A DNA stretch of 39,300 bases. It comes from a virus. Within the stretch, counting starts at the first letter, position 1. The number at the start of each line of letters is the position of its first letter. Positions 1 through 23,347 of this stretch are shown here, piece after piece. Both the position numbers and the translations under genes were made by a program. Under the pieces are notes generated by a model. It had not been told where the DNA came from. It was given only the letters and a program-made list of their open reading frames with translations, and ran no database searches. The stretch lies in the UHGV virus genome UHGV-0123126; one strand, given 5' to 3'.

Positions 1-491
1 CGCCACCCCACGATGTATCCGGCAAACACATCAATGATGAACGCCACATAGACGAAGCCCCGCCATGTGCTGACGTAAGTAAAATCAGCCACCCACAGCT
101 GGTCAGGTCGTTCTGCCACGAACTGACGGTTTACGCGGTCGCCTGCGGCAACGGCTTTCCGGCTGATGGTCGTACGGACCTTTTTACCCCGGAGAACACC
201 GGCAAGTCCCATAACCGCCATGAGACGTGCCACAGTGCATCTGGCCACTCTGATACCTTCCCGTAACAACTGACGCCAGACTTTACGCACACCGTATACC
301 TTGTGATTTTCATCGTATACGCGCTGTATCTCTTTCTTCAGCCAGTCATCGCGCTGCGCACGGGCACTGCGTTTATCCGGATGATGTCGCTGTTGCTGAC
401 AGTGGTAATACGTTGACGGGGCAATATGCAGTTCGCTGCATAGCGGTCCGACCCCGTACTGCTCACGCAGCTTATCCAGCAGTGGCATCAT
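1..491 (-). CDS. IS3-family transposase OrfB (DDE catalytic domain), 3' end beyond window start
   Basis: Own translation of minus strand: [22 protein letters not shown]...[36 protein letters not shown], open to position 1. The track ORF 131..313 is in a different, spurious frame. Confidence 0.85.
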
Positions 492-814
492 TTTTTCCAG
501 AGGCGGTCGAACTCCGCCTTCGCAAAATAAGCGGAAGCCTGGCGAAGGATATCGTTACTGCGGCGCAGTTCACGATTTTCACGTTCCAGCTCTTTCAGAC
601 GCTGACGTTCAGCGGTGGTGAGCCCTCCATCACCGCCCCCGGTATCCCGCTCATGCTGGCGAACCCAGACACGCAGAGTCTCCGGCGTACAGCCAATCTT
701 TGGAGCAATGGAACAAATTGTCGCCCATTGTGAGTCATATTCGCTCTGACTTTCCAGAACCATACGGACTGCCCGTTGACGGACTTCGGGGGAAAAACGA
801 GTATTTTTAGTCAT
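488..814 (-). CDS. IS3-family transposase OrfA (HTH DNA-binding, leucine-zipper-like C-terminus)
   Basis: 108-aa [26 protein letters not shown]...; 3' end overlaps OrfB at the frameshift window. Confidence 0.85.
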
Positions 815-1415: not shown

Positions 1416-1591
1416 GCTGCCACCTCTTTGATTACATCAAATGCTGAATTAAATACGAGCACGATAGCCAAAGCGTTTATGACTACGTCGTGCACCGGGG
1501 AAAAGACTTTACGAATGACACCAGTGAAAATGCAGTCGATGACAAAAGCTATTGAAACGATGAGTAACAAGTATTCAATAAAAATCTTCAT
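1412..1591 (-). CDS. Small membrane protein (59 aa), not in ORF track
   Basis: Own translation MKIFIEYLLLIVSIAFVIDCIFTGVIRKVFSPVHDVVINALAIVLVFNSAFDVIKEVAA; stop overlaps next start. Confidence 0.4.
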   Translation of the reverse strand: MKIFIEYLLLIVSIAFVIDCIFTGVIRKVFSPVHDVVINALAIVLVFNSAFDVIKEVAA

Positions 1592-1630
1592 GATAGGTAG
1601 ATACTAACTTATATAAATTTTACTGTAAAC

Positions 1631-1906
1631 TCACTCAAAAGTGCTGATGCTTAAAATACGCTCAAGATGTTCGGCATCTTCATCACTGATTTGTTGAGTC
1701 TCTTCTACGTACCAACAGTTGCCGTTATGCCAACAAACACCATCATCATCAACCATCACTGAATCAGCGTCATGACCTGTATATTCAACGAGAATACGCT
1801 GGATCAGCGCGTCAGTTTCTTCGTCGTTAAGGCCATCGGCTTTGACCATAAAAAGCGGAAACACGTCATAGACAGTGCTGGTAACGATTCGAACTAAAAC
1901 TCTCAT
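1631..1906 (-). CDS. Hypothetical acidic protein
   Basis: 91-aa ORF, co-directional with neighbours, A/T-rich motif upstream of start. Confidence 0.5.
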   Translation of the reverse strand: MRVLVRIVTSTVYDVFPLFMVKADGLNDEETDALIQRILVEYTGHDADSVMVDDDGVCWHNGNCWYVEETQQISDEDAEHLERILSISTFE

Positions 1907-10044: not shown

Positions 10045-10228
10045 AGCATCGTTGGTTTGCAAGACAGACCTTATGTAAGCAGTTTTAGTAAAGCAGTCTC
10101 AGTTCAGTGTTATCTTCTGATTTCCCTTCTTCGTGAGTCTCCTCCTTAAGTGCCTAAGTAAGTCCCAATCTATACAGATCAAATTCTCGCCGCACTATGT
10201 GGCTCACAAAATTAAGAAGGTAATATCT

Positions 10229-10444
10229 ATGTCTAATAAAATGACTGGTTTAGTAAAATGGTTTAACTCTGATAAAGGCTTTGGCTTTATTTCTCCTGCT
10301 GATGGCAGTAAAGATGTTTTTGTACATTTTTCGGCAATTCAGAGTAATAATTTCCGCACTTTGGAAGAAGGCCAGCAGGTCGAATTCTCTATCGAGAATG
10401 GGGCTAAAGGCCCAGCAGCAGCAAATGTCGTTGCTCTAAGCTGA
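10229..10444 (+). CDS. Cold-shock protein, CspA family (CspB/G/I-like), 71 aa
   Basis: [38 protein letters not shown]... carries the RNP1/RNP2 motifs of CspA-family proteins; the track ORF is extended upstream. Confidence 0.9.
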
Positions 10445-10720
10445 TTCAACGCTGATGATCCTCATTTCTACAATAACGAAGACGGTGTAAGCCTGAGTGG
10501 ATAGATTTGTAGGATTGTACAAGTTGAATAAATTAGCATGGTAAGGCCATGCTAATTAAATCGACACAACGGCCAGTTTATTCCATAAAAGTGAATTGCC
10601 CATTGTGGCGAAATGCGGGGTTGCCGCATGAATAGTCAAAGGCAGAAGCTAACTGCCGGCATGGCAAAACAAAGTGCGTAAGAGGAGTGACTTCCTCAAC
10701 AAGCGCCATAATTCTTTATA

Positions 10721-18448: not shown

Positions 18449-18835
18449 ATGTCTGATAACAAGATTGAATTTATAGAAAGTCGCTACGCTGCTTTTATCG
18501 CAGGGTTGATTGAATCCTCACCTATGAGCCAGGCCCAGATAGCCAAAACAATTGGGTATAAAAACGCCAACAACCTTTCTTTAATTAAAAGCGGCAAAAT
18601 TCCTTTGCCTATCGATAAGGTTCGTCCGCTGGCGCTGGCACTGGGCATTGAGCCAAGTCGTCTTATGATGATGGTGCTGGAAGAACGCCAACCCGAACTC
18701 GCAGCATTTTTATACAAAGAAGGCACTGCTCCTCTTAACGAGGACGAAAAACAGGTTCTTGCTGCATATAACGAGCGATTCGGTAAAGAGAAAGGCGCAT
18801 CACAAAAGGTTGTTGAGGCCATAAAGTCTCTATGA
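18449..18835 (+). CDS. Helix-turn-helix (XRE-like) transcriptional regulator
   Basis: 128 aa; HTH segment SQAQIAKTIGYKNANNLSLIKSGK; divergent from the replication operon, convergent with the recombinase. Confidence 0.7.
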   Translation: MSDNKIEFIESRYAAFIAGLIESSPMSQAQIAKTIGYKNANNLSLIKSGKIPLPIDKVRPLALALGIEPSRLMMMVLEERQPELAAFLYKEGTAPLNEDEKQVLAAYNERFGKEKGASQKVVEAIKSL

Positions 18836-19933
18836 AAAATTTACACGAATAAGCTCTGTTGATAGACGATCTCCCTTAAATTTGTGGTCAATTTCGTCTA
18901 AATCCGGTTGCTCTACGATTGATGCGATGTACGTCGAGAAACTTTCTAAGGCGTCTCGCATCTCGTCCATATAATCGTGCCGGTCGTAGACCCGATCTAT
19001 CCCCTCAAGACTGTGGTTCATGATTTTACGTGATACCTCCTGGCTTATGCCTAATGCTGGGAAGTAACTACGCGCAGTACGGCGCAAATCTCGGGGTGTA
19101 AATGGCTCAAGCTCCATCAGTTCTGGTCGTTCCAGAATACGACGTAATGCCTGGGCTATTGCCACTTTAGACATAGGAAGGTCTTTCCCGATTTTTTTAT
19201 TCGAAGGCACGAGCCACTGGCTGTCTTTACCATATTCGAACAACTCTTCAATACAAGTGCGCATTAATGAGCTTAAAGGCAGAGAATGCTCACGGGCAGA
19301 TTTGTTCCTCTTGCCTTGATTCCAAACCCCACGCTTAAGATTGAACTCACTTTTTTTAGCCCGCAGTACTTCGTCAGGTCGTCTTGCGGATACAAGACAT
19401 AGCCTGGCCGCCCATTTTGTACCAGCGCACACATTGAAGTAGTCCCATATATTCCAGAACACCCATACCTCTGCGTCGGTCAGCTTCCGCTCGCGAGGTG
19501 TGGGCTTTGCGCCACCGGCAACTTTGTTAAGTGACATATCGTTTAACGGTGACACGTCTATCATCCCCTGGAAGGCGCACCAGCTAAGGAACTGCTTCAT
19601 CAGAGAGAAAACGCGGCGGCCCATAACAATTTTGCCATCCAGTATTAGTGGGTTGACCAGTTGGTTCACCATGAACCTATTAATGTCACTTACTTTTACA
19701 TCGGCAATGTGCGGCAAAACATGTATCAAAATACAATGAACAGCGATCTCTGGCCGACGTCTGGTTATCAGCAGAGATAAGCGAGTGAATAACATGAATG
19801 CGTCCGAGAATCTCATGTCATTGCTGACCTGGGAGATCATAACGGCCTGCATTTGAGATGCTCTTTCGAGATACTCTATCGCCTCTTTTGAGGTGTTCTC
19901 CGCAGCGCGTGCTCTGTCAAAGCTATTTTTCAT
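18830..19933 (-). CDS. Tyrosine recombinase / integrase family protein
   Basis: C-terminal catalytic region RDLRRTARSYF ... MNHSLEGIDRVYDRHDY (R..H..Y pattern); 367 aa. Confidence 0.8.
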   Translation of the reverse strand: MKNSFDRARAAENTSKEAIEYLERASQMQAVMISQVSNDMRFSDAFMLFTRLSLLITRRRPEIAVHCILIHVLPHIADVKVSDINRFMVNQLVNPLILDGKIVMGRRVFSLMKQFLSWCAFQGMIDVSPLNDMSLNKVAGGAKPTPRERKLTDAEVWVFWNIWDYFNVCAGTKWAARLCLVSARRPDEVLRAKKSEFNLKRGVWNQGKRNKSAREHSLPLSSLMRTCIEELFEYGKDSQWLVPSNKKIGKDLPMSKVAIAQALRRILERPELMELEPFTPRDLRRTARSYFPALGISQEVSRKIMNHSLEGIDRVYDRHDYMDEMRDALESFSTYIASIVEQPDLDEIDHKFKGDRLSTELIRVNFS

Positions 19934-20031: not shown

Positions 20032-20064
20032 AATGATTCCATACATAGTAGGTATGGAATCATT
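20032..20064. repeat. Perfect 13-bp inverted repeat AATGATTCCATAC-(7 bp)-GTATGGAATCATT; lox/dif-like candidate core site
   Basis: 13-bp arms with 7-bp spacer, about 100 bp upstream of the tyrosine recombinase gene. Confidence 0.45.
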
Positions 20065-20563: not shown

Positions 20564-21826
20564 ATGCCTTTTTTAATTTTCATTATTATACTACTGCTCA
20601 CCGTCATTTTTTGGGATTGGGTTGTTTTAAATGGTCAAACTGTTGGAACATTGGCTACAGCATTTGCTTTTATAGCAACAGCATGGAATGCCTACGAAGC
20701 GAGAAAAAGTGCAAAAGCAGCTTTTTCAGCCCTTCAATTAACAACTGAATCATTGTTCGAAATGCGAAAGAGTGCATTTAAACAATGGTTTGATTCCTTA
20801 TTAAATCAACATGATGAGTTATGTCTTCTTGCAAAACAAATTATCGATAAACACAAAATTAATTTAAACAGCGATGAGTTACATAGACTATATTATCCAT
20901 TGGTAAGACAGCATGAGGTAATACAGTATGTGAAGCATATTATTAATATATTTGAGTATGTGGATGGTTCATTTTATATTGATGGGGAATGTCTCAAGGA
21001 AAAAAGAGCGTATGTGTCACAATTAATTTTTAAAATCCCACCTCAGATGAAGTTGATCATTGCTATCTTTGGATTAAAAATCGATTATTGTGAACATATT
21101 AATTCGGAAAAACTGTGTTGTTTATTGAATAAATATGATTTTTTCAATGATGAAATATTTTTTGATGATGCTTATTCAAATATGCCTTATCTGGATACAT
21201 TCATAAACCTTAGATTCAACAAAATATTCAAATCTCGAATGATAAATTATTTTGATAATATCATTAAAAGTTATTATGTTCCATCGGACGTTAAAAGGGA
21301 CTGGATGTTTCGACACCCAAAGCTCGTACCGTCGGTTCTTATGAATTATAAAACTCCTTGTTCTCCTATAATTAATGATTACTTTGAGAAGTTGCCTTTA
21401 CATGTAAGAAACTACTTTGAGGAACTACTTAAAACCGCGAATGATAGAGTTACTCATTTTGACGTTTACATCCCACGCCTTATTGGTTGTTCAATCGTGC
21501 AACATTACGAAGATGTGCCTTCCGAAAAAAACAGGTTAAATGACAGGAATGATGTAATAGCTATGGCTGAAGATTACATCGAGAAAAGAAAATCTAATCA
21601 ACTAGATTACATACTTGAAGATATATACTTTAAGAGTGACGAAGATATAATCCCAGGCCACCATTTAATTGTGGCATTTGATGACTATGAATATAAATTA
21701 GCACTAATTAAGATAAATGAAAATAAAGATAACGATAATCTTTTAAATCGAATTTATACTGAATCCAGTAGCATGGTTAATGAATATAAGCGCGAAATAT
21801 TAAAATTGGGCGACTATGCAAAGTAA
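20564..21826 (+). CDS. AT-rich membrane-anchored protein of unknown function (two N-terminal TM helices, about 370-aa cytoplasmic domain); candidate abortive-infection/defence protein
   Basis: 420-aa ORF with GC content clearly lower than flanking DNA; only long plus-strand gene here; own terminator. Confidence 0.65.
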   Translation: MPFLIFIIILLLTVIFWDWVVLNGQTVGTLATAFAFIATAWNAYEARKSAKAAFSALQLTTESLFEMRKSAFKQWFDSLLNQHDELCLLAKQIIDKHKINLNSDELHRLYYPLVRQHEVIQYVKHIINIFEYVDGSFYIDGECLKEKRAYVSQLIFKIPPQMKLIIAIFGLKIDYCEHINSEKLCCLLNKYDFFNDEIFFDDAYSNMPYLDTFINLRFNKIFKSRMINYFDNIIKSYYVPSDVKRDWMFRHPKLVPSVLMNYKTPCSPIINDYFEKLPLHVRNYFEELLKTANDRVTHFDVYIPRLIGCSIVQHYEDVPSEKNRLNDRNDVIAMAEDYIEKRKSNQLDYILEDIYFKSDEDIIPGHHLIVAFDDYEYKLALIKINENKDNDNLLNRIYTESSSMVNEYKREILKLGDYAK

Positions 21827-21844: not shown

Positions 21845-21871
21845 AAAGGGGCCGAAGCCCCTTTGAATTTT
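21845..21871 (+). terminator. Rho-independent terminator (AAAGGGGC-CGAA-GCCCCTTT)
   Basis: GC-rich hairpin then TTTGAATTTT, 20 nt after the AT-rich gene stop. Confidence 0.55.
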
Positions 21872-21938: not shown

Positions 21939-22016
21939 CACAGCGTTGAGCGGTCTGGTTTATGTTAGCGGAGTCTTAATCGAGTTGATTAAAAGGCCAA
22001 ACCGCTCAACGCTGTG
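21939..22016. repeat. 16-bp perfect inverted repeat CACAGCGTTGAGCGGT / ACCGCTCAACGCTGTG, 46-bp spacer with nested palindrome
   Basis: Arms at 21939..21954 and 22001..22016; directly abuts the 3' end of tRNA-Ser. Confidence 0.6.
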
Positions 22017-22018
22017 TC

Positions 22019-22105
22019 TGGCGGAGAGTAATGGAATCGAACCATCATCGTTTGCACAATGGGACGGTTTTCAAGACCGCTTGAGCACCATGCTCCCTAC
22101 TCTCC
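22019..22105 (-). tRNA. tRNA-Ser (anticodon UGA), class II with long variable arm, CCA encoded
   Basis: Hand-folded: acceptor GGAGAGT/ACTCTCC, anticodon loop CTTGAAA, T-loop TTCGATT, discriminator G + CCA. Confidence 0.6.
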
Positions 22106-22322
22106 AATTGTTGTGGTTACCGGTACTGATCTCCGGCTTAGCGACCCCGGCTACTGACTGCATTGCAGTGTGTGAACTCGCCTCGTGTGTCGCTGGGGCA
22201 TTTCTTTCCGCGCATCAGTCTGCGCATCAACCACAACGAAAAGAGCACTGTATGACGTTTGCACGGACTTACGCTTAAAACAGGGCAGTCTCGGCGGTTT
22301 TCAATGCTCTTTCCTGTTGTGT

Positions 22323-22398
22323 TGGTGCCGGTTAACGGACTCGAACCGCTGACATCCTGCTTACAAGGCAGGCGCTCTACCAACTGAGCTAAACCGGC
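22323..22398 (-). tRNA. tRNA-Thr (anticodon UGU), CCA encoded
   Basis: Hand-folded: acceptor GCCGGTT/AACCGGC, D-arm GCTC..GAGC, anticodon stem CCTGC/GCAGG with loop CTTGTAA, T-loop TTCGAGT. Confidence 0.8.
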
Positions 22399-22402
22399 AA
22401 TT

Positions 22403-22489
22403 TGGTGGGGAGTGATGGAGTCGAACCACCCGAGTCGCCATGACAGTAGATTTACAGTCTACACCGCTACCTCTACGGACTAACTCCCC
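22403..22489 (-). tRNA. tRNA-Tyr (anticodon GUA), long variable arm, CCA encoded
   Basis: Hand-folded: acceptor GGGGAGT/ACTCCCC, anticodon stem GTAGA/TCTAC with loop CTGTAAA, T-loop TTCGACT. Confidence 0.8.
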
Positions 22490-22494
22490 TAAAT

Positions 22495-22569
22495 TGGCGA
22501 TGGTGGGTGGATTCGAACCACCGACCAGTTGGTTAACAGCCAACTGCTCTACCGCTGAGCTACACCATC
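22495..22569 (-). tRNA. tRNA-Asn (anticodon GUU), CCA encoded
   Basis: Hand-folded: acceptor GATGGTG/CACCATC, anticodon stem GTTGG/CCAAC with loop CTGTTAA, T-arm GGTGG-TTCGAAT-CCACC. Confidence 0.8.
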
Positions 22570-22835
22570 AATTCAGCACTGCCAGTATTTATTACTCAAC
22601 AGTGCCAATCGCGACGGTTTAGTTTCTGCCAGGAAACGCACCGCTACTTGCACTTTTCGTTAGTGCCAGACGCTTTCGACTTCGCTCAATAGTAGAAGGC
22701 AAAATCTTTAAATAGATGATGTTTCTGAGGACAGCACCTACTTTGTAATTTATACAATGTGATGTATGGAATAATTTGTTGTGAAAACAGGCACCAATGG
22801 CAACAGTGGTTAAACCTACACAACAATCCCGTCTT

Positions 22836-22957
22836 CACAACGTTGAGGCCACTACTCCGATTGAATGTTTGCCCAACATGTTACATATCAACGCTCGCCG
22901 GTATCTCTGTGAATAGAACCTTAGAATTGATAAAAATGTAATGGCCTCAACGTTGTG
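22836..22957. repeat. 16-bp perfect inverted repeat CACAACGTTGAGGCCA / TGGCCTCAACGTTGTG, about 90-bp spacer
   Basis: Arms at 22836..22851 and 22942..22957; shares core CACA-CGTTGAG with the repeat at 21939. Confidence 0.6.
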
Positions 22958-23033
22958 TGCTGGCTAACCATACCAGCCGGGCTACGTCGCCGCTTTTTAA
23001 CCCAGTATAAACGACATAATTGAACAAAATGAC

Positions 23034-23112
23034 GTAACAGAATGGGCGGTCAGTGGCTAAGAATCCGGGAGTCATATGGAGTTGAAAATATACCAACCGC
23101 CCATTCTGTTAC
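23034..23112. repeat. 16-bp perfect inverted repeat GTAACAGAATGGGCGG / CCGCCCATTCTGTTAC, 47-bp spacer
   Basis: Arms at 23034..23049 and 23097..23112 in a non-coding region. Confidence 0.6.
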
Positions 23113-23118
23113 TTCATC

Positions 23119-23142
23119 GGAGGGAACATGAATGTTCCCTCC
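23119..23142. repeat. 24-bp palindrome GGAGGGAACAT-GA-ATGTTCCCTCC
   Basis: Perfect 11-bp arms; no T-run on either side, so protein-binding site or RNA hairpin rather than a terminator. Confidence 0.55.
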
Positions 23143-23316
23143 TGCGTTCTGCAATCACACTCGCTCAGTGTGTCCCATTTCGGTAACGAGGCTGGAAACT
23201 GACCTCGCTGGTGTTTGGCTTATTAGGCTACTGCCAGATAGACTTCTTCGTTTGCACTTGTATTTAAGTTCAAACAGTCGCGTCTCAACGAAAACAAAGT
23301 CATCTTATACACAAAA

Positions 23317-23338
23317 GATAAGTAAGTAAATACTTATC
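23317..23338. promoter_or_regulatory. Palindrome GATAAGTA-AGTAAA-TACTTATC, 3' of the small-gene operon
   Basis: Perfect 8-bp arms; same ATAAGTA/TACTTAT family as 3546, 15746, 26840. Confidence 0.45.
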
Positions 23339-23347
23339 AATATGTTT

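Follow-up and report, generated by a model that had tools for sequence, protein, structure and literature searches.

RNA stems cleaved by RNase III are known from the early region of phage T7 and from the rrn operons, and the maturation of the phage T4 tRNAs is dependent on RNase III. The T4 tRNA cluster also encodes small stable RNAs (species 1 and 2, rnaC and rnaD), while in some E. coli tRNA transcripts a terminator hairpin defines the removal of the 3' trailer. Transcripts that link a tRNA to a hairpin are known as well, namely the tRNA-miRNA units of MHV68 and the leuX and 3'ETS-leuZ trailer hairpin/sponge RNAs of E. coli. As for tmRNA (ssrA), a 2014 census lists phage genes only in mycobacteriophages and in Bacillus phage G (PMC4131195).

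Phage tRNA clusters are usually annotated as bare tRNAs and 'spacers'. In the window analysed here, the whole 39.3-kb stretch of DNA of an SSU5-like phage-plasmid, the spacers are conserved structured RNAs: four hairpins (HP1 to HP4), a further hairpin (B), a three-helix element (C module) and a tmRNA-like tag RNA. Like RNase III stems, the hairpins are dsRNA helices of about 20 bp without U-tracts, placed between functional RNAs of what would be one transcript, and they conserve pairing rather than distal sequence; unlike those stems, they are sequence-conserved at the stem base and in parts of the loops, and they are self-contained instead of pairing over a long range around a product. As with T4 species 1 and 2, structured RNAs other than tRNAs are interspersed and probably co-transcribed with phage tRNA genes, but no sequence similarity was detected and HP1 matches SSU5-like phages only. 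The MHV68, leuX and leuZ transcripts share with this locus a hairpin located 0-2 nt past the 3' end of a tRNA, from which tRNA 3' processing would free it, although the organisms and enzymes differ. Structured spacers of this kind are common to SSU5-like phage-plasmids, P1-like phages, lambdoid prophages and others, where they are kept more faithfully than the tRNAs, and the array offers concrete elements for how phages mature and stabilise their tRNAs.

The window carries four tRNA genes, all on the minus strand: Ser(UGA) (22019..22105, CCA encoded), Thr(UGU) (22323..22398, Rfam 74.9 bits), Tyr(GUA) (22403..22489) and Asn(GUU) (22495..22569). ARAGORN calls the same four that a preliminary description had named, and Tyr and Asn are also found by Rfam; tRNA-Tyr is missing in the relative Cyrano, while tRNA-Asn is the one tRNA found in every tRNA-bearing SSU5-like relative examined. 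The whole array would be a single minus-strand non-coding transcript, leading from a weak promoter through the tag RNA, HP4, HP3, HP2, tRNA-Asn, tRNA-Tyr, tRNA-Thr, the B hairpin, the C module, tRNA-Ser and HP1 to an intrinsic terminator. We infer this extent, as a consensus scan found no sigma-70 promoter for the array. The putative weak promoter, which the scan did not call, was read from the sequence at 23302..23330 on the minus strand (TTTACT-N17-TAAGAT, 8/12); the same position upstream of other tag RNAs holds TTGACA-N17-TAAGAT in Michonne and TTGACA-N17-TAGATT in prophage L044. The intrinsic terminator (21845..21864, minus strand; AAAGGGGCUUCGGCCCCUUU followed by UUUUGUUG) was found by a terminator scan, lies 74 nt beyond HP1, is invariant in Cyrano and CMS-2020a and also reads as a terminator for a convergent plus-strand ORF. 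Rfam 15 was searched with the region in E-value mode (to E=10) and with the whole window in gathering mode, and nothing in the region apart from the tRNAs reached a gathering threshold. The E-value run returned only tRNAs, sub-threshold tmRNA matches and a mir-3129 match on HP1, which was dismissed as noise (19.6 bits against a gathering score of 90). RefSeq/GenBank records have no feature annotated at the hairpins or the tag RNA, and a full-text literature search yielded no account, for these phages, of either the hairpins or an RNA resembling tmRNA.

The preliminary description had reported four perfect inverted repeats flanking the tRNA genes; all four were recovered at the same positions, three being the longest spaced inverted repeats in the window, and all features below lie on the minus strand. 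HP1 (21939..22016; arms 21939-21958 and 21997-22016, 20 nt at 95% with a perfect 16-nt core) is a 20-bp stem with one U·G and a 38-nt loop, which contains a covarying inner hairpin followed by the invariant motif AAGACUCCGC. HP2 (22836..22957; arms 22836-22855 and 22938-22957, 20 nt at 95%, 16 of them perfect) has a 20-bp stem with one G·U and an 82-nt loop that keeps the conserved islands CCACAGAG, UGUUGGG and AAUCGG. HP3 (23029..23117; arms 23029-23050 and 23096-23117, 22 nt at 95%) includes a perfect 17-bp core (23034-23050 / 23096-23112) inside about 26 bp, and its 45-nt loop displays UCCCGG in all sequences compared. HP4 (23119..23142; arms 23119-23129 and 23132-23142, 11 nt perfect) is a G+C-rich 11-bp hairpin with a tight loop, stacked directly on HP3; it aligns with the 5' arm of the HK620 and Carvaje B hairpins and corresponds, with a short loop, to the B hairpin that comes after the tag RNA in other phages. 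When folded as RNA, HP1 (dG -41.2, z -8.15), HP2 (dG -48.6, z -5.14) and HP3+HP4 (z = -8.9) were equalled by none of 200 shuffles. The core said to be common to HP1 and HP2 is also real, their arms sharing CACA(G/A)CGTTGAG (12 nt, one difference), and pairs of the CACA(A/G)CG motif are, in the window, confined to this region. The tRNAs are bracketed only in part: HP1 abuts tRNA-Ser, but HP2-HP4 sit 267-573 nt upstream of tRNA-Asn.

The elements were compared in about 50 distinct relatives. Imperfect stem positions are almost all G·U on the tRNA strand, which corresponds to A·C on the opposite strand. For HP3/HP4, 98.8% of cells are paired when compared to 34-51% with the alignment slid, 93 cells are G·U while about 10 are unpaired, and double changes occupy 47 cells where 13.4 are expected, a number that 0 of 500 shuffles reach. 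In HP3, helix 3 is 99.5% paired, with six positions alternating between G-C and G·U on the tRNA strand, and HP4 has changed on both sides in 6 of its 8 pairs (variants GGAGGGAAC, GGAGAGGGC, GGAGAGAGC, GGAUAGGGC and GGUAGGGC). The 15 distinct HP1 homologues display 285 Watson-Crick, 14 G·U and 1 A·C pairs, with the compensatory exchange of GUUGAGC/GCUCAAC for GCUGAAC/GUUCAGC; the HP2 homologues display 219, 9 and 1, respectively, with GAGGCC/GGCCUC exchanged for GAGACC/GGUCUC. A Klebsiella paralogue has 16 G·U against 0 A·C, and HP1, HP2 and the post-Asn paralogue together have 39 against 2. Across clades, identity is 0.95 in the stem and 0.53 in the loop of HP1, and 0.95 and 0.67 in those of HP2. 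At the level of sequence comparison, these data show that the hairpins are under selection as RNA structures on the tRNA strand. The compensatory changes and the G·U asymmetry thus argue for hairpins in the RNA of the tRNA transcript and against DNA sites, since pairing of both strands would be needed by a cruciform in DNA, a recombination site, an origin or a pac site.

HP1 begins 2 nt past the CCA of tRNA-Ser in the window, and in all relatives it follows the last tRNA at CCA+1/+2, whichever tRNA is last (Ser in E. coli and Klebsiella relatives, Asn in SSU5-type relatives). The B hairpin follows tRNA-Thr at CCA+1, a junction found again in 9 relatives. These alignments show that members of the hairpin family begin 0-2 nt past the CCA of a tRNA. 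Every relative that retains tRNAs also has the hairpins, including those with other tRNA sets, and the absence from close relatives that the preliminary description had named as evidence against a role was not observed. Their positions are fixed, while close relatives differ in tRNA set and in the B+C module; the comparison shows the hairpins to be more constant than the tRNA repertoire. HP1 homologues are restricted to six phage records, all SSU5-like. HP2 was found in 211 of 5426 E. coli genomes, always on a phage-plasmid and at a median of 1 place per genome (maximum 2), with no chromosomal copy except a CRISPR spacer.

The Thr-Ser spacer is filled by the B hairpin (22232..22321) and the C module (22110..22237), so that two more imperfect family members, missed in the preliminary description, lie inside the cluster (22110-22321). 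The B hairpin is an imperfect member of the CACAAC family (CACAACAGGAAAGAGCAUUG...CAGUGCUCUUUUCGUUGUG) that aligns with the B hairpins of Carvaje and HK620, and its last 6 nt double as part of the 5' strand of the C module. The C module, in its MFE fold, is a three-helix, loosely tRNA-like RNA ending 4 nt before tRNA-Ser. Its closing stem pairs GUUGUGGUU with AACCACAAC, and a centre that varies separates its 5' hairpin (GCGCAGACUGAUGCGC) from its 3' hairpin (CCGGAGAUCAGUACCGG). Homologues occur in HK620, Carvaje, P7 and prophages; among 25 distinct ones, 94.9% of cells are paired when compared to 28-57% in slid alignments, with 19 double-change cells where 4.1 are expected (0/500 shuffles). 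Cyrano is without B and C, and CMS-2020a has a different sequence between the conserved ends.

The base motif of the family, CACA(A/G)CG...CG(Y)UGUG, also defines hairpins in P1-like, lambdoid and other phages, and their comparison shows that family members go together with tRNA genes and the tag RNA in several phage groups that are unrelated to one another. All 207 tRNAs located within -500 to +1500 nt of tag RNAs at 131 loci are on the tag strand. Lambdoid prophages have one family hairpin on either side of the tag RNA; pairing of the arms of hairpin A with those of hairpin B was considered at these loci and rejected, as local hairpins fit the Carvaje sequences better. Across the HP4/B position, the stem is kept while the loop varies from 2 nt to more than 60 nt.

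The core of the tmRNA-like tag RNA extends over 23138..23317, with its tag frame running from 23255 to 23223: GCA AAC GAA GAA GUC UAU CUG GCA GUA GCC UAA, that is, ANEEVYLAVA*, with a second UAA next. The frame has no start codon and opens, as a tmRNA tag frame does, at an Ala resume codon, GCA, preceded by a UAAAU-like sequence; it closes with a hydrophobic Ala-rich C-terminus and a stop. Among 144 tag loci retrieved via a downstream anchor, the consensus is AN[DE]x x[YF]LA[VA]A-stop and the stop codon itself varies (TAA, TAG, TGA). The tag of locus L147 differs at six third positions, five of them synonymous, while the +2 frame over the tag is not conserved. Judging from these substitutions, coding selection acts on the tag frame. 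The alternative of an ordinary small ORF read in +2 (MQTKKSIWQ) was rejected, as substitutions are synonymous in the tag frame only and the +2 stop is lost in L147.

The tag stop codon would lie in a hairpin loop, surrounded by a UGGC/GCYA stem, and is followed by an H-type pseudoknot candidate and a further hairpin. CCGA/UCGG-type pairing covaries (CG to UA in 11 sequences, GC to AU/CG in 26, AU to GC in 9), as does the further hairpin; the first stem of the pseudoknot was judged by eye alone. The likeness to tmRNA, two-piece permuted forms included, consists of the GCA resume codon and the 10-codon frame ending in YLAVA-stop, with a putative placement of the stop codon in a hairpin loop ahead of a candidate pseudoknot, exactly where Rfam tmRNA models align; they align to the tag part alone and score 11-30 bits, far under their gathering scores of 47-84. 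In contrast to tmRNA, the tag RNA is embedded in phage tRNA arrays or late leaders, and a tRNA-like domain (acceptor stem, T-arm, ACCA) was not found by ARAGORN, by Rfam or by a directed pairing search. Neither the window nor any of 59 representative loci has a tmRNA called by ARAGORN, and a directed search for leader/acceptor-strand pairing that would close a tmRNA-like fold gave nothing consistent. A search for a hidden tRNA-like domain (T-arm + 7 nt + NCCA, with a 7-mer pairing to the tag leader, within ±3 kb) returned chance matches to ordinary tRNAs, a match in L039 being better explained as the local C module. Pairing of the tag leader (UUUUCGUUGAGAC) with the 3' arm of HP2 was also rejected: it comprises 7-9 bp without covariation, in loci L057, L107 and L116 only the leader side has changed, and the likeness is treated as paralogy. 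The tag RNA is matched in at least 317 phage records and at least 120 viral contigs, E. coli prophages included; it is unannotated and present in hundreds of enterobacterial phages.

What the hairpins do can be read most readily, with about an even chance of being right, as processing and stability punctuation of one minus-strand non-coding transcript. HP1 and HP2 (20 bp each), as well as HP3 (about 26 bp) with the stacked HP4, have the size of RNase III substrates (about two turns, i.e. about 20 bp or more, mostly Watson-Crick), while HP4 alone (11 bp) has not. Cleavage at such helices (HP1, HP2, HP3 with HP4, and B) would yield the tag RNA, the tRNA block and a 3' trailer; the leftover stem halves would block 3' exonucleases until the tRNA ends are trimmed, and a hairpin directly after the CCA would set where the 3' trailer comes off. 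It is the length of the helices, and only that, which points to RNase III. Of the three options in the preliminary description, the data agree with just the RNA-level one, given the compensatory changes and the one-strand G·U, while processing itself is the likeliest reading of their size and placement. HP2-HP4 are not needed for tRNA excision, being 267-573 nt from the nearest tRNA, and the conserved stem-base sequence and the loop islands of HP1 and HP2 are left unexplained by the processing model.

A tentative alternative, to which we give a lesser but appreciable weight, is that the hairpins and the C module are functional small stable RNAs, freed from the precursor by tRNA-processing enzymes; they might act in trans as tRNA-like decoys, bind proteins, serve as sponges or be partners of the tag RNA, for example by giving a phage trans-translation system its tRNA-like domain in a non-canonical form. 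The pairing of the 5' and 3' ends into a long closing stem, the conserved loop motifs of HP1 and HP2, the covariation that backs all three helices of the C module, and the constant linkage of the elements to a coding-selected tag RNA without a tRNA-like domain of its own are in agreement with this. A perfect T-arm is moreover enclosed in the B-type hairpins of Carvaje and L100, which hints at a tRNA-like rather than a passive function; T-arms also occur in the C modules of L039 and L098, and an NCCA end in 5 of 131. However, T-arms are seen only in some homologues elsewhere, tRNA features are missing from most loops, ARAGORN and Rfam call no tRNA or pseudo-tRNA for HP1-HP4, B or C, G3·U70 is not seen, CCA is mostly unencoded, and the leader/acceptor pairing search speaks against such a partner. 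In SSU5-like phages, furthermore, the loops at the HP4/B position shrink to 2-13 nt, so that loop cargo is dispensable there.

Somewhat more doubtfully, the array could be an undescribed phage trans-translation module, in which the tag template would be expressed alongside B/C partners, some of them bearing T-arms and NCCA ends, that supply or replace the tRNA-like domain it lacks. Were this true, the inverted repeats would be functional parts or decayed copies of the module, and enterobacterial phages of several families would tag the proteins of stalled ribosomes with their own peptide during infection. Translation of the tag would amount to phage intervention in the rescue of ribosomes and the tagging of proteins; host take-over at that level is undescribed for these phages.

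It is unlikely that the hairpins are transcription signals (factor-dependent or leaky terminators, attenuators or put-like antitermination elements) that adjust how much transcription of the upstream replication-gene operon reads through into the tRNAs. In favour, hairpins at the RNA level separate the tRNAs from that operon, the loop of the G+C-rich HP4 is tight, and the homologous modules of HK620 lie in its late leader, with qut on one side and the late terminator on the other. Nevertheless, the loops of 38-82 nt are unlike those of terminators, HP1 lies past the last tRNA yet ahead of the real terminator, and no Rfam cis-regulatory family is similar. As the preliminary description had anticipated in doubting that these are simple terminators, no T-run follows any of the four: HP1 to HP4 are succeeded by AUAGAU, AAGACG, UUUGUU (past a 5-bp extension) and GAUGAA, respectively, and the scan of the tRNA strand near the cluster calls nothing terminator-like besides 21845-21864.

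We consider it improbable that the repeats are DNA recombination sites or mobile elements, such as attC-like sites of tRNA cassettes or MITEs. Elements of different length share a terminal core, tRNA and hairpin modules are common to phages that are not related, and a tyrosine integrase that matches Phage_integrase only is encoded 2 kb away (18830-19933). As in integron attC sites, each 'cassette' is followed by an imperfect inverted repeat, about 60-140 nt long, whose ends are conserved and whose centre varies. Against this, HP1 reads GTTGAGC...GCTCAAC on both strands, which fits the attC cores by letter but is the reverse of their order RYYYAAC...GTTRRRY, and the constraint is on the RNA strand, in a single copy and at a fixed position, which speaks against an attC site; a MITE or dispersed repeat is opposed by copy number, with HP2 at a median of 1, HP1 in six SSU5-like records and the motif region-restricted. 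Of the earlier idea of a mobilised tRNA cassette, what remains is that the tRNA set and the B+C module vary among close relatives and that the Cyrano deletion ends in TTGTTGTG direct repeats, the GTTGTG repeats of the hairpin base. This variation looks like a by-product of repeated sequence and not the work of a dedicated recombination system. The suggested origin or packaging structure is hardly credible even though the 780-nt non-coding stretch here adjoins the ligase and primase genes, given selection on one strand only, the finding of neither iterons nor tandem repeats, and the presence of the same modules, in tRNA arrays or late leaders, in phages with quite different replication and packaging systems.

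Two minor observations concern the neighbours of the hairpins. tRNA-Ser(UGA) has its best Rfam match in tRNA-Sec, whose gathering score (47) exceeds the 44.8 bits obtained. A small hairpin of reversed type (GUUGUGUAGG...CCUGUUUUCACAAC; 14 nt, 86%) occupies 22778..22841 on the minus strand, immediately 3' of HP2 in the RNA.

Our analysis shows that the inverted repeats around the four tRNA genes correspond to conserved RNA hairpins within a non-coding array, which comprises a tmRNA-like tag RNA, the hairpins, the tRNAs and a terminator. The window is an SSU5-like phage-plasmid and shares 97–98% identity with Escherichia phages CMS-2020a and Cyrano. The genes for tRNA-Ser(UGA), Thr(UGU), Tyr(GUA) and Asn(GUU) are all on the minus strand (ARAGORN and Rfam), as are the genes right of the array (ligase, primase, small ORFs), and no credible ORF was found in 22570–23347. 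Re-scanning returned the four repeats at exactly the positions of the preliminary description, all on the minus strand: HP1 (arms 21939–21958/21997–22016), HP2 (22836–22855/22938–22957), HP3 (23029–23050/23096–23117, with a perfect core at 23034–23050/23096–23112) and HP4 (23119–23129/23132–23142). The core that it had seen in HP1 and HP2 reads CACA(G/A)CGTTGAG and is common to the arms of both. HP1, HP2 and HP3 are the three longest truly spaced inverted repeats of the complete 39.3-kb window, as a scan showed, and RNA folding against shuffled controls gave z = -8.2 (HP1), -5.1 (HP2) and -8.9 (HP3+HP4); the repeats are confirmed as real, with chance ruled out. Its remark that no T-run follows them also holds, as a terminator scan found no U-tract after HP1, HP2, HP3 or HP4, while the true terminator, a strong intrinsic one (21845–21864, minus strand), sits 74 nt past HP1.

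Relatives were drawn from GenBank phages and IMG/VR. Across the 24 distinct sequences of the HP3/HP4 pairing analysis, 98.8% of cells are paired, compared to 34–51% with the partner column slid, and double changes occupy 47 cells against 13.4 expected, a number that none of 500 shuffles reached. HP4 displays compensatory changes at six of eight pairs; two-sided changes are rare in HP3, where six positions switch between G-C and G·U on the tRNA strand. This alignment holds about 93 G·U cells, equivalent to A·C mismatches on the opposite strand, versus about 10 unpaired. G·U likewise outnumbers A·C in HP2 (9 vs 1), HP1 (14 vs 1) and a paralogous hairpin located after tRNA-Asn in Klebsiella relatives (16 vs 0), and among these three we observed the compensations GAGGCC/GGCCUC to GAGACC/GGUCUC and GUUGAGC/GCUCAAC to GCUGAAC/GUUCAGC. 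The compensations and the G·U/A·C asymmetry show that selection on the hairpins acts on RNA of the tRNA strand, which excludes a cruciform, a recombination site, an origin or packaging as the main constraint. Among the three options initially proposed, the RNA-level reading is therefore retained, while the recombination-site and origin or packaging options are not.

When relatives were compared, as had been suggested, the hairpins were kept though the tRNA sets differ. SSU5 carries Asn only, the Klebsiella relatives Asn and Ser, Cyrano Asn-Thr-Ser and the window Asn-Tyr-Thr-Ser; HP4, HP3 and HP2 are found in all of them, and HP1 in every such relative keeping tRNAs, so that the hairpins are less variable than the tRNA repertoire. 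HP1 always starts 1–2 nt past the CCA of the last tRNA, be it Ser or Asn, and a related hairpin begins 1 nt past the tRNA-Thr CCA. Identity across clades is 95% in stems and 53–67% in loops. The HP1 loop contains an inner hairpin kept by covariation, followed by an invariant AAGACUCCGC, and the HP2 loop keeps three short sequence islands; the loops are not free of constraint. Klebsiella phage GArcari-2022b has lost all tRNAs, HP2 and HP1 and retains the tag RNA, HP4 and HP3.

The hairpin base CACA(A/G)CG...CG(Y)UGUG also occurs in the P1-like P7 and D6, the lambdoid HK620, Klebsiella phage Carvaje and many prophage contigs, on the tRNA strand in every case. In the window, the 217-nt Thr-Ser spacer is filled by two minus-strand elements unlisted in the preliminary description, the B hairpin (22232–22321) and the C module (22110–22237; closing stem GUUGUGGUU/AACCACAAC and two internal hairpins), which overlap by 6 nt. 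The three helices of the C module are 94.9% paired in 25 distinct homologues, versus 28–57% when slid (0/500 shuffles). A few phages have a perfect T-arm within the B-type hairpin loop or the C module, and 5 of 131 C modules have an NCCA end; some of the family therefore derives from tRNAs or resembles them. B and C are missing from Cyrano, whose deletion terminates in TTGTTGTG direct repeats; thus repeated hairpin bases promote module gain and loss, and nothing more than this is left of the suggested mobile tRNA cassette. A MITE is ruled out by distribution: HP2 is single-copy and, where present among E. coli genomes (211 of 5426), occurs on phage-plasmids only, and HP1 is restricted to SSU5-like phages.

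The tag RNA (23138–23317, minus strand; tag frame 23255->23223) lies upstream of HP4, a short-looped equivalent of the B hairpin found behind the tag RNA in other phages. A BLAST search with the non-coding stretch hit at least 317 phage records, most over 23153–23307 only, and homologues occur in at least 120 viral contigs. Among the matches listed, the hosts are Felix-O1-like, lambdoid, SSU5-like and other phages, and the RNA is always on the tRNA strand, whether inside Felix-O1-like tRNA arrays, in the HK620 late leader or beside tRNAs in other phages. Its core has the sequence ...AAAUACAAGU GCA AAC GAA GAA GUC UAU CUG GCA GUA GCC UAA UAA and encodes ANEEVYLAVA-stop (the E. coli ssrA tag is ANDENYALAA). 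Because loci were fetched via a downstream anchor, the tag sequence played no part in their retrieval. Of the 144 true loci, all but one have kept a ten-codon frame closed by a stop, the sole exception being GArcari-2022b with an in-frame TAG at codon 5 (ANDN*). The stop alternates between TAA, TAG and TGA, one locus has six third-position differences of which five are synonymous, and the overlapping +2 frame shows no conservation; the tag frame is under coding selection. The stop codon lies within a hairpin loop, followed by a covarying pseudoknot candidate and another hairpin. Rfam tmRNA models aligned to the tag only, with scores below threshold, ARAGORN called no tmRNA, and a search for a tRNA-like domain found none. 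The RNA is absent from Rfam and from record annotation, and a 2014 tmRNA census (PMC4131195) lists phage ssrA for mycobacteriophages and Bacillus phage G only.

We infer, as an evenly balanced proposal, that the hairpins are punctuation for RNA maturation and stability. Their helices of about 20 bp match RNase III size, cleavage at them would separate tag RNA, tRNA block and trailer, and those abutting CCA could define the point of 3' trailer removal and shield intermediates. In the main rival, which we consider less likely, the hairpins and C module would themselves function as small RNAs, perhaps as partners of the tag RNA; conserved loop motifs and the T-arms of occasional members favour this, and the dispensable HP4 loops count against it. 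DNA-level, terminator and origin readings are improbable even jointly. Structured processing elements are already familiar from polycistronic transcripts of phages; what appears undescribed is this hairpin family, the way it is tied in position to tRNA 3' ends and its association with a tmRNA-like tag RNA, none of which is covered by Rfam, record annotation or the literature searched. The adjacent tag RNA is more surprising than the hairpins.

As for codon usage, in the 22 window ORFs of at least 150 aa Thr is most often encoded by ACA (31%) and Ser by UCA (23%), codons that fit tRNA-Thr(UGU) and tRNA-Ser(UGA). A 420-aa ORF without Pfam match (20564–21826, plus strand) occupies a slot adjoining the shared bidirectional terminator; the window, Cyrano and CMS-2020a differ in sequence there, which marks it as a position for variable cargo. 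A near-perfect palindrome (AATGATTCCATACATA/TAGGTATGGAATCATT, 20032–20064) between the integrase and glutaredoxin genes and a similar half-site (GTATGGAATAATTTG, ~22756–22770) between HP2 and tRNA-Asn may serve as operator sites of the repressor nearby. Rfam gathering-level matches include a cspA thermoregulator 5' UTR (10051–10469, plus strand, 185.7 bits), hence a cold-shock gene on the phage-plasmid, and an ALIL pseudoknot (417–533, minus strand, 120.2 bits), which is the element for frameshifting in an IS3-type insertion sequence. An annotated CRISPR of an E. coli chromosome (NZ_LR778147.1, 1705875–1705905) matches window 22937–22967 at 31/31 positions, namely the HP2 3' arm plus 10 nt, and is a natural spacer against this phage-plasmid. 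P7 (AF503408) has a tRNA-Ser(UGA) unannotated in its record (1524–1610, minus strand), and the annotated tRNA strand of D6 is opposite to ARAGORN's; in both, members of the same hairpin family occupy the tRNA-Thr/tRNA-Ser interval and also follow tRNA-Ser, and neither phage matched the tag pattern. Finally, Citrobacter phage Michonne has an uncalled tRNA-like element after tRNA-Arg (~1707–1817, minus strand), with acceptor stem GGUCAAG/CUUGACU, discriminator G, CCA, a perfect T-arm and about 95 nt in between, whose 5' part resembles a hairpin-family arm (ACAACACGAGUAAG).
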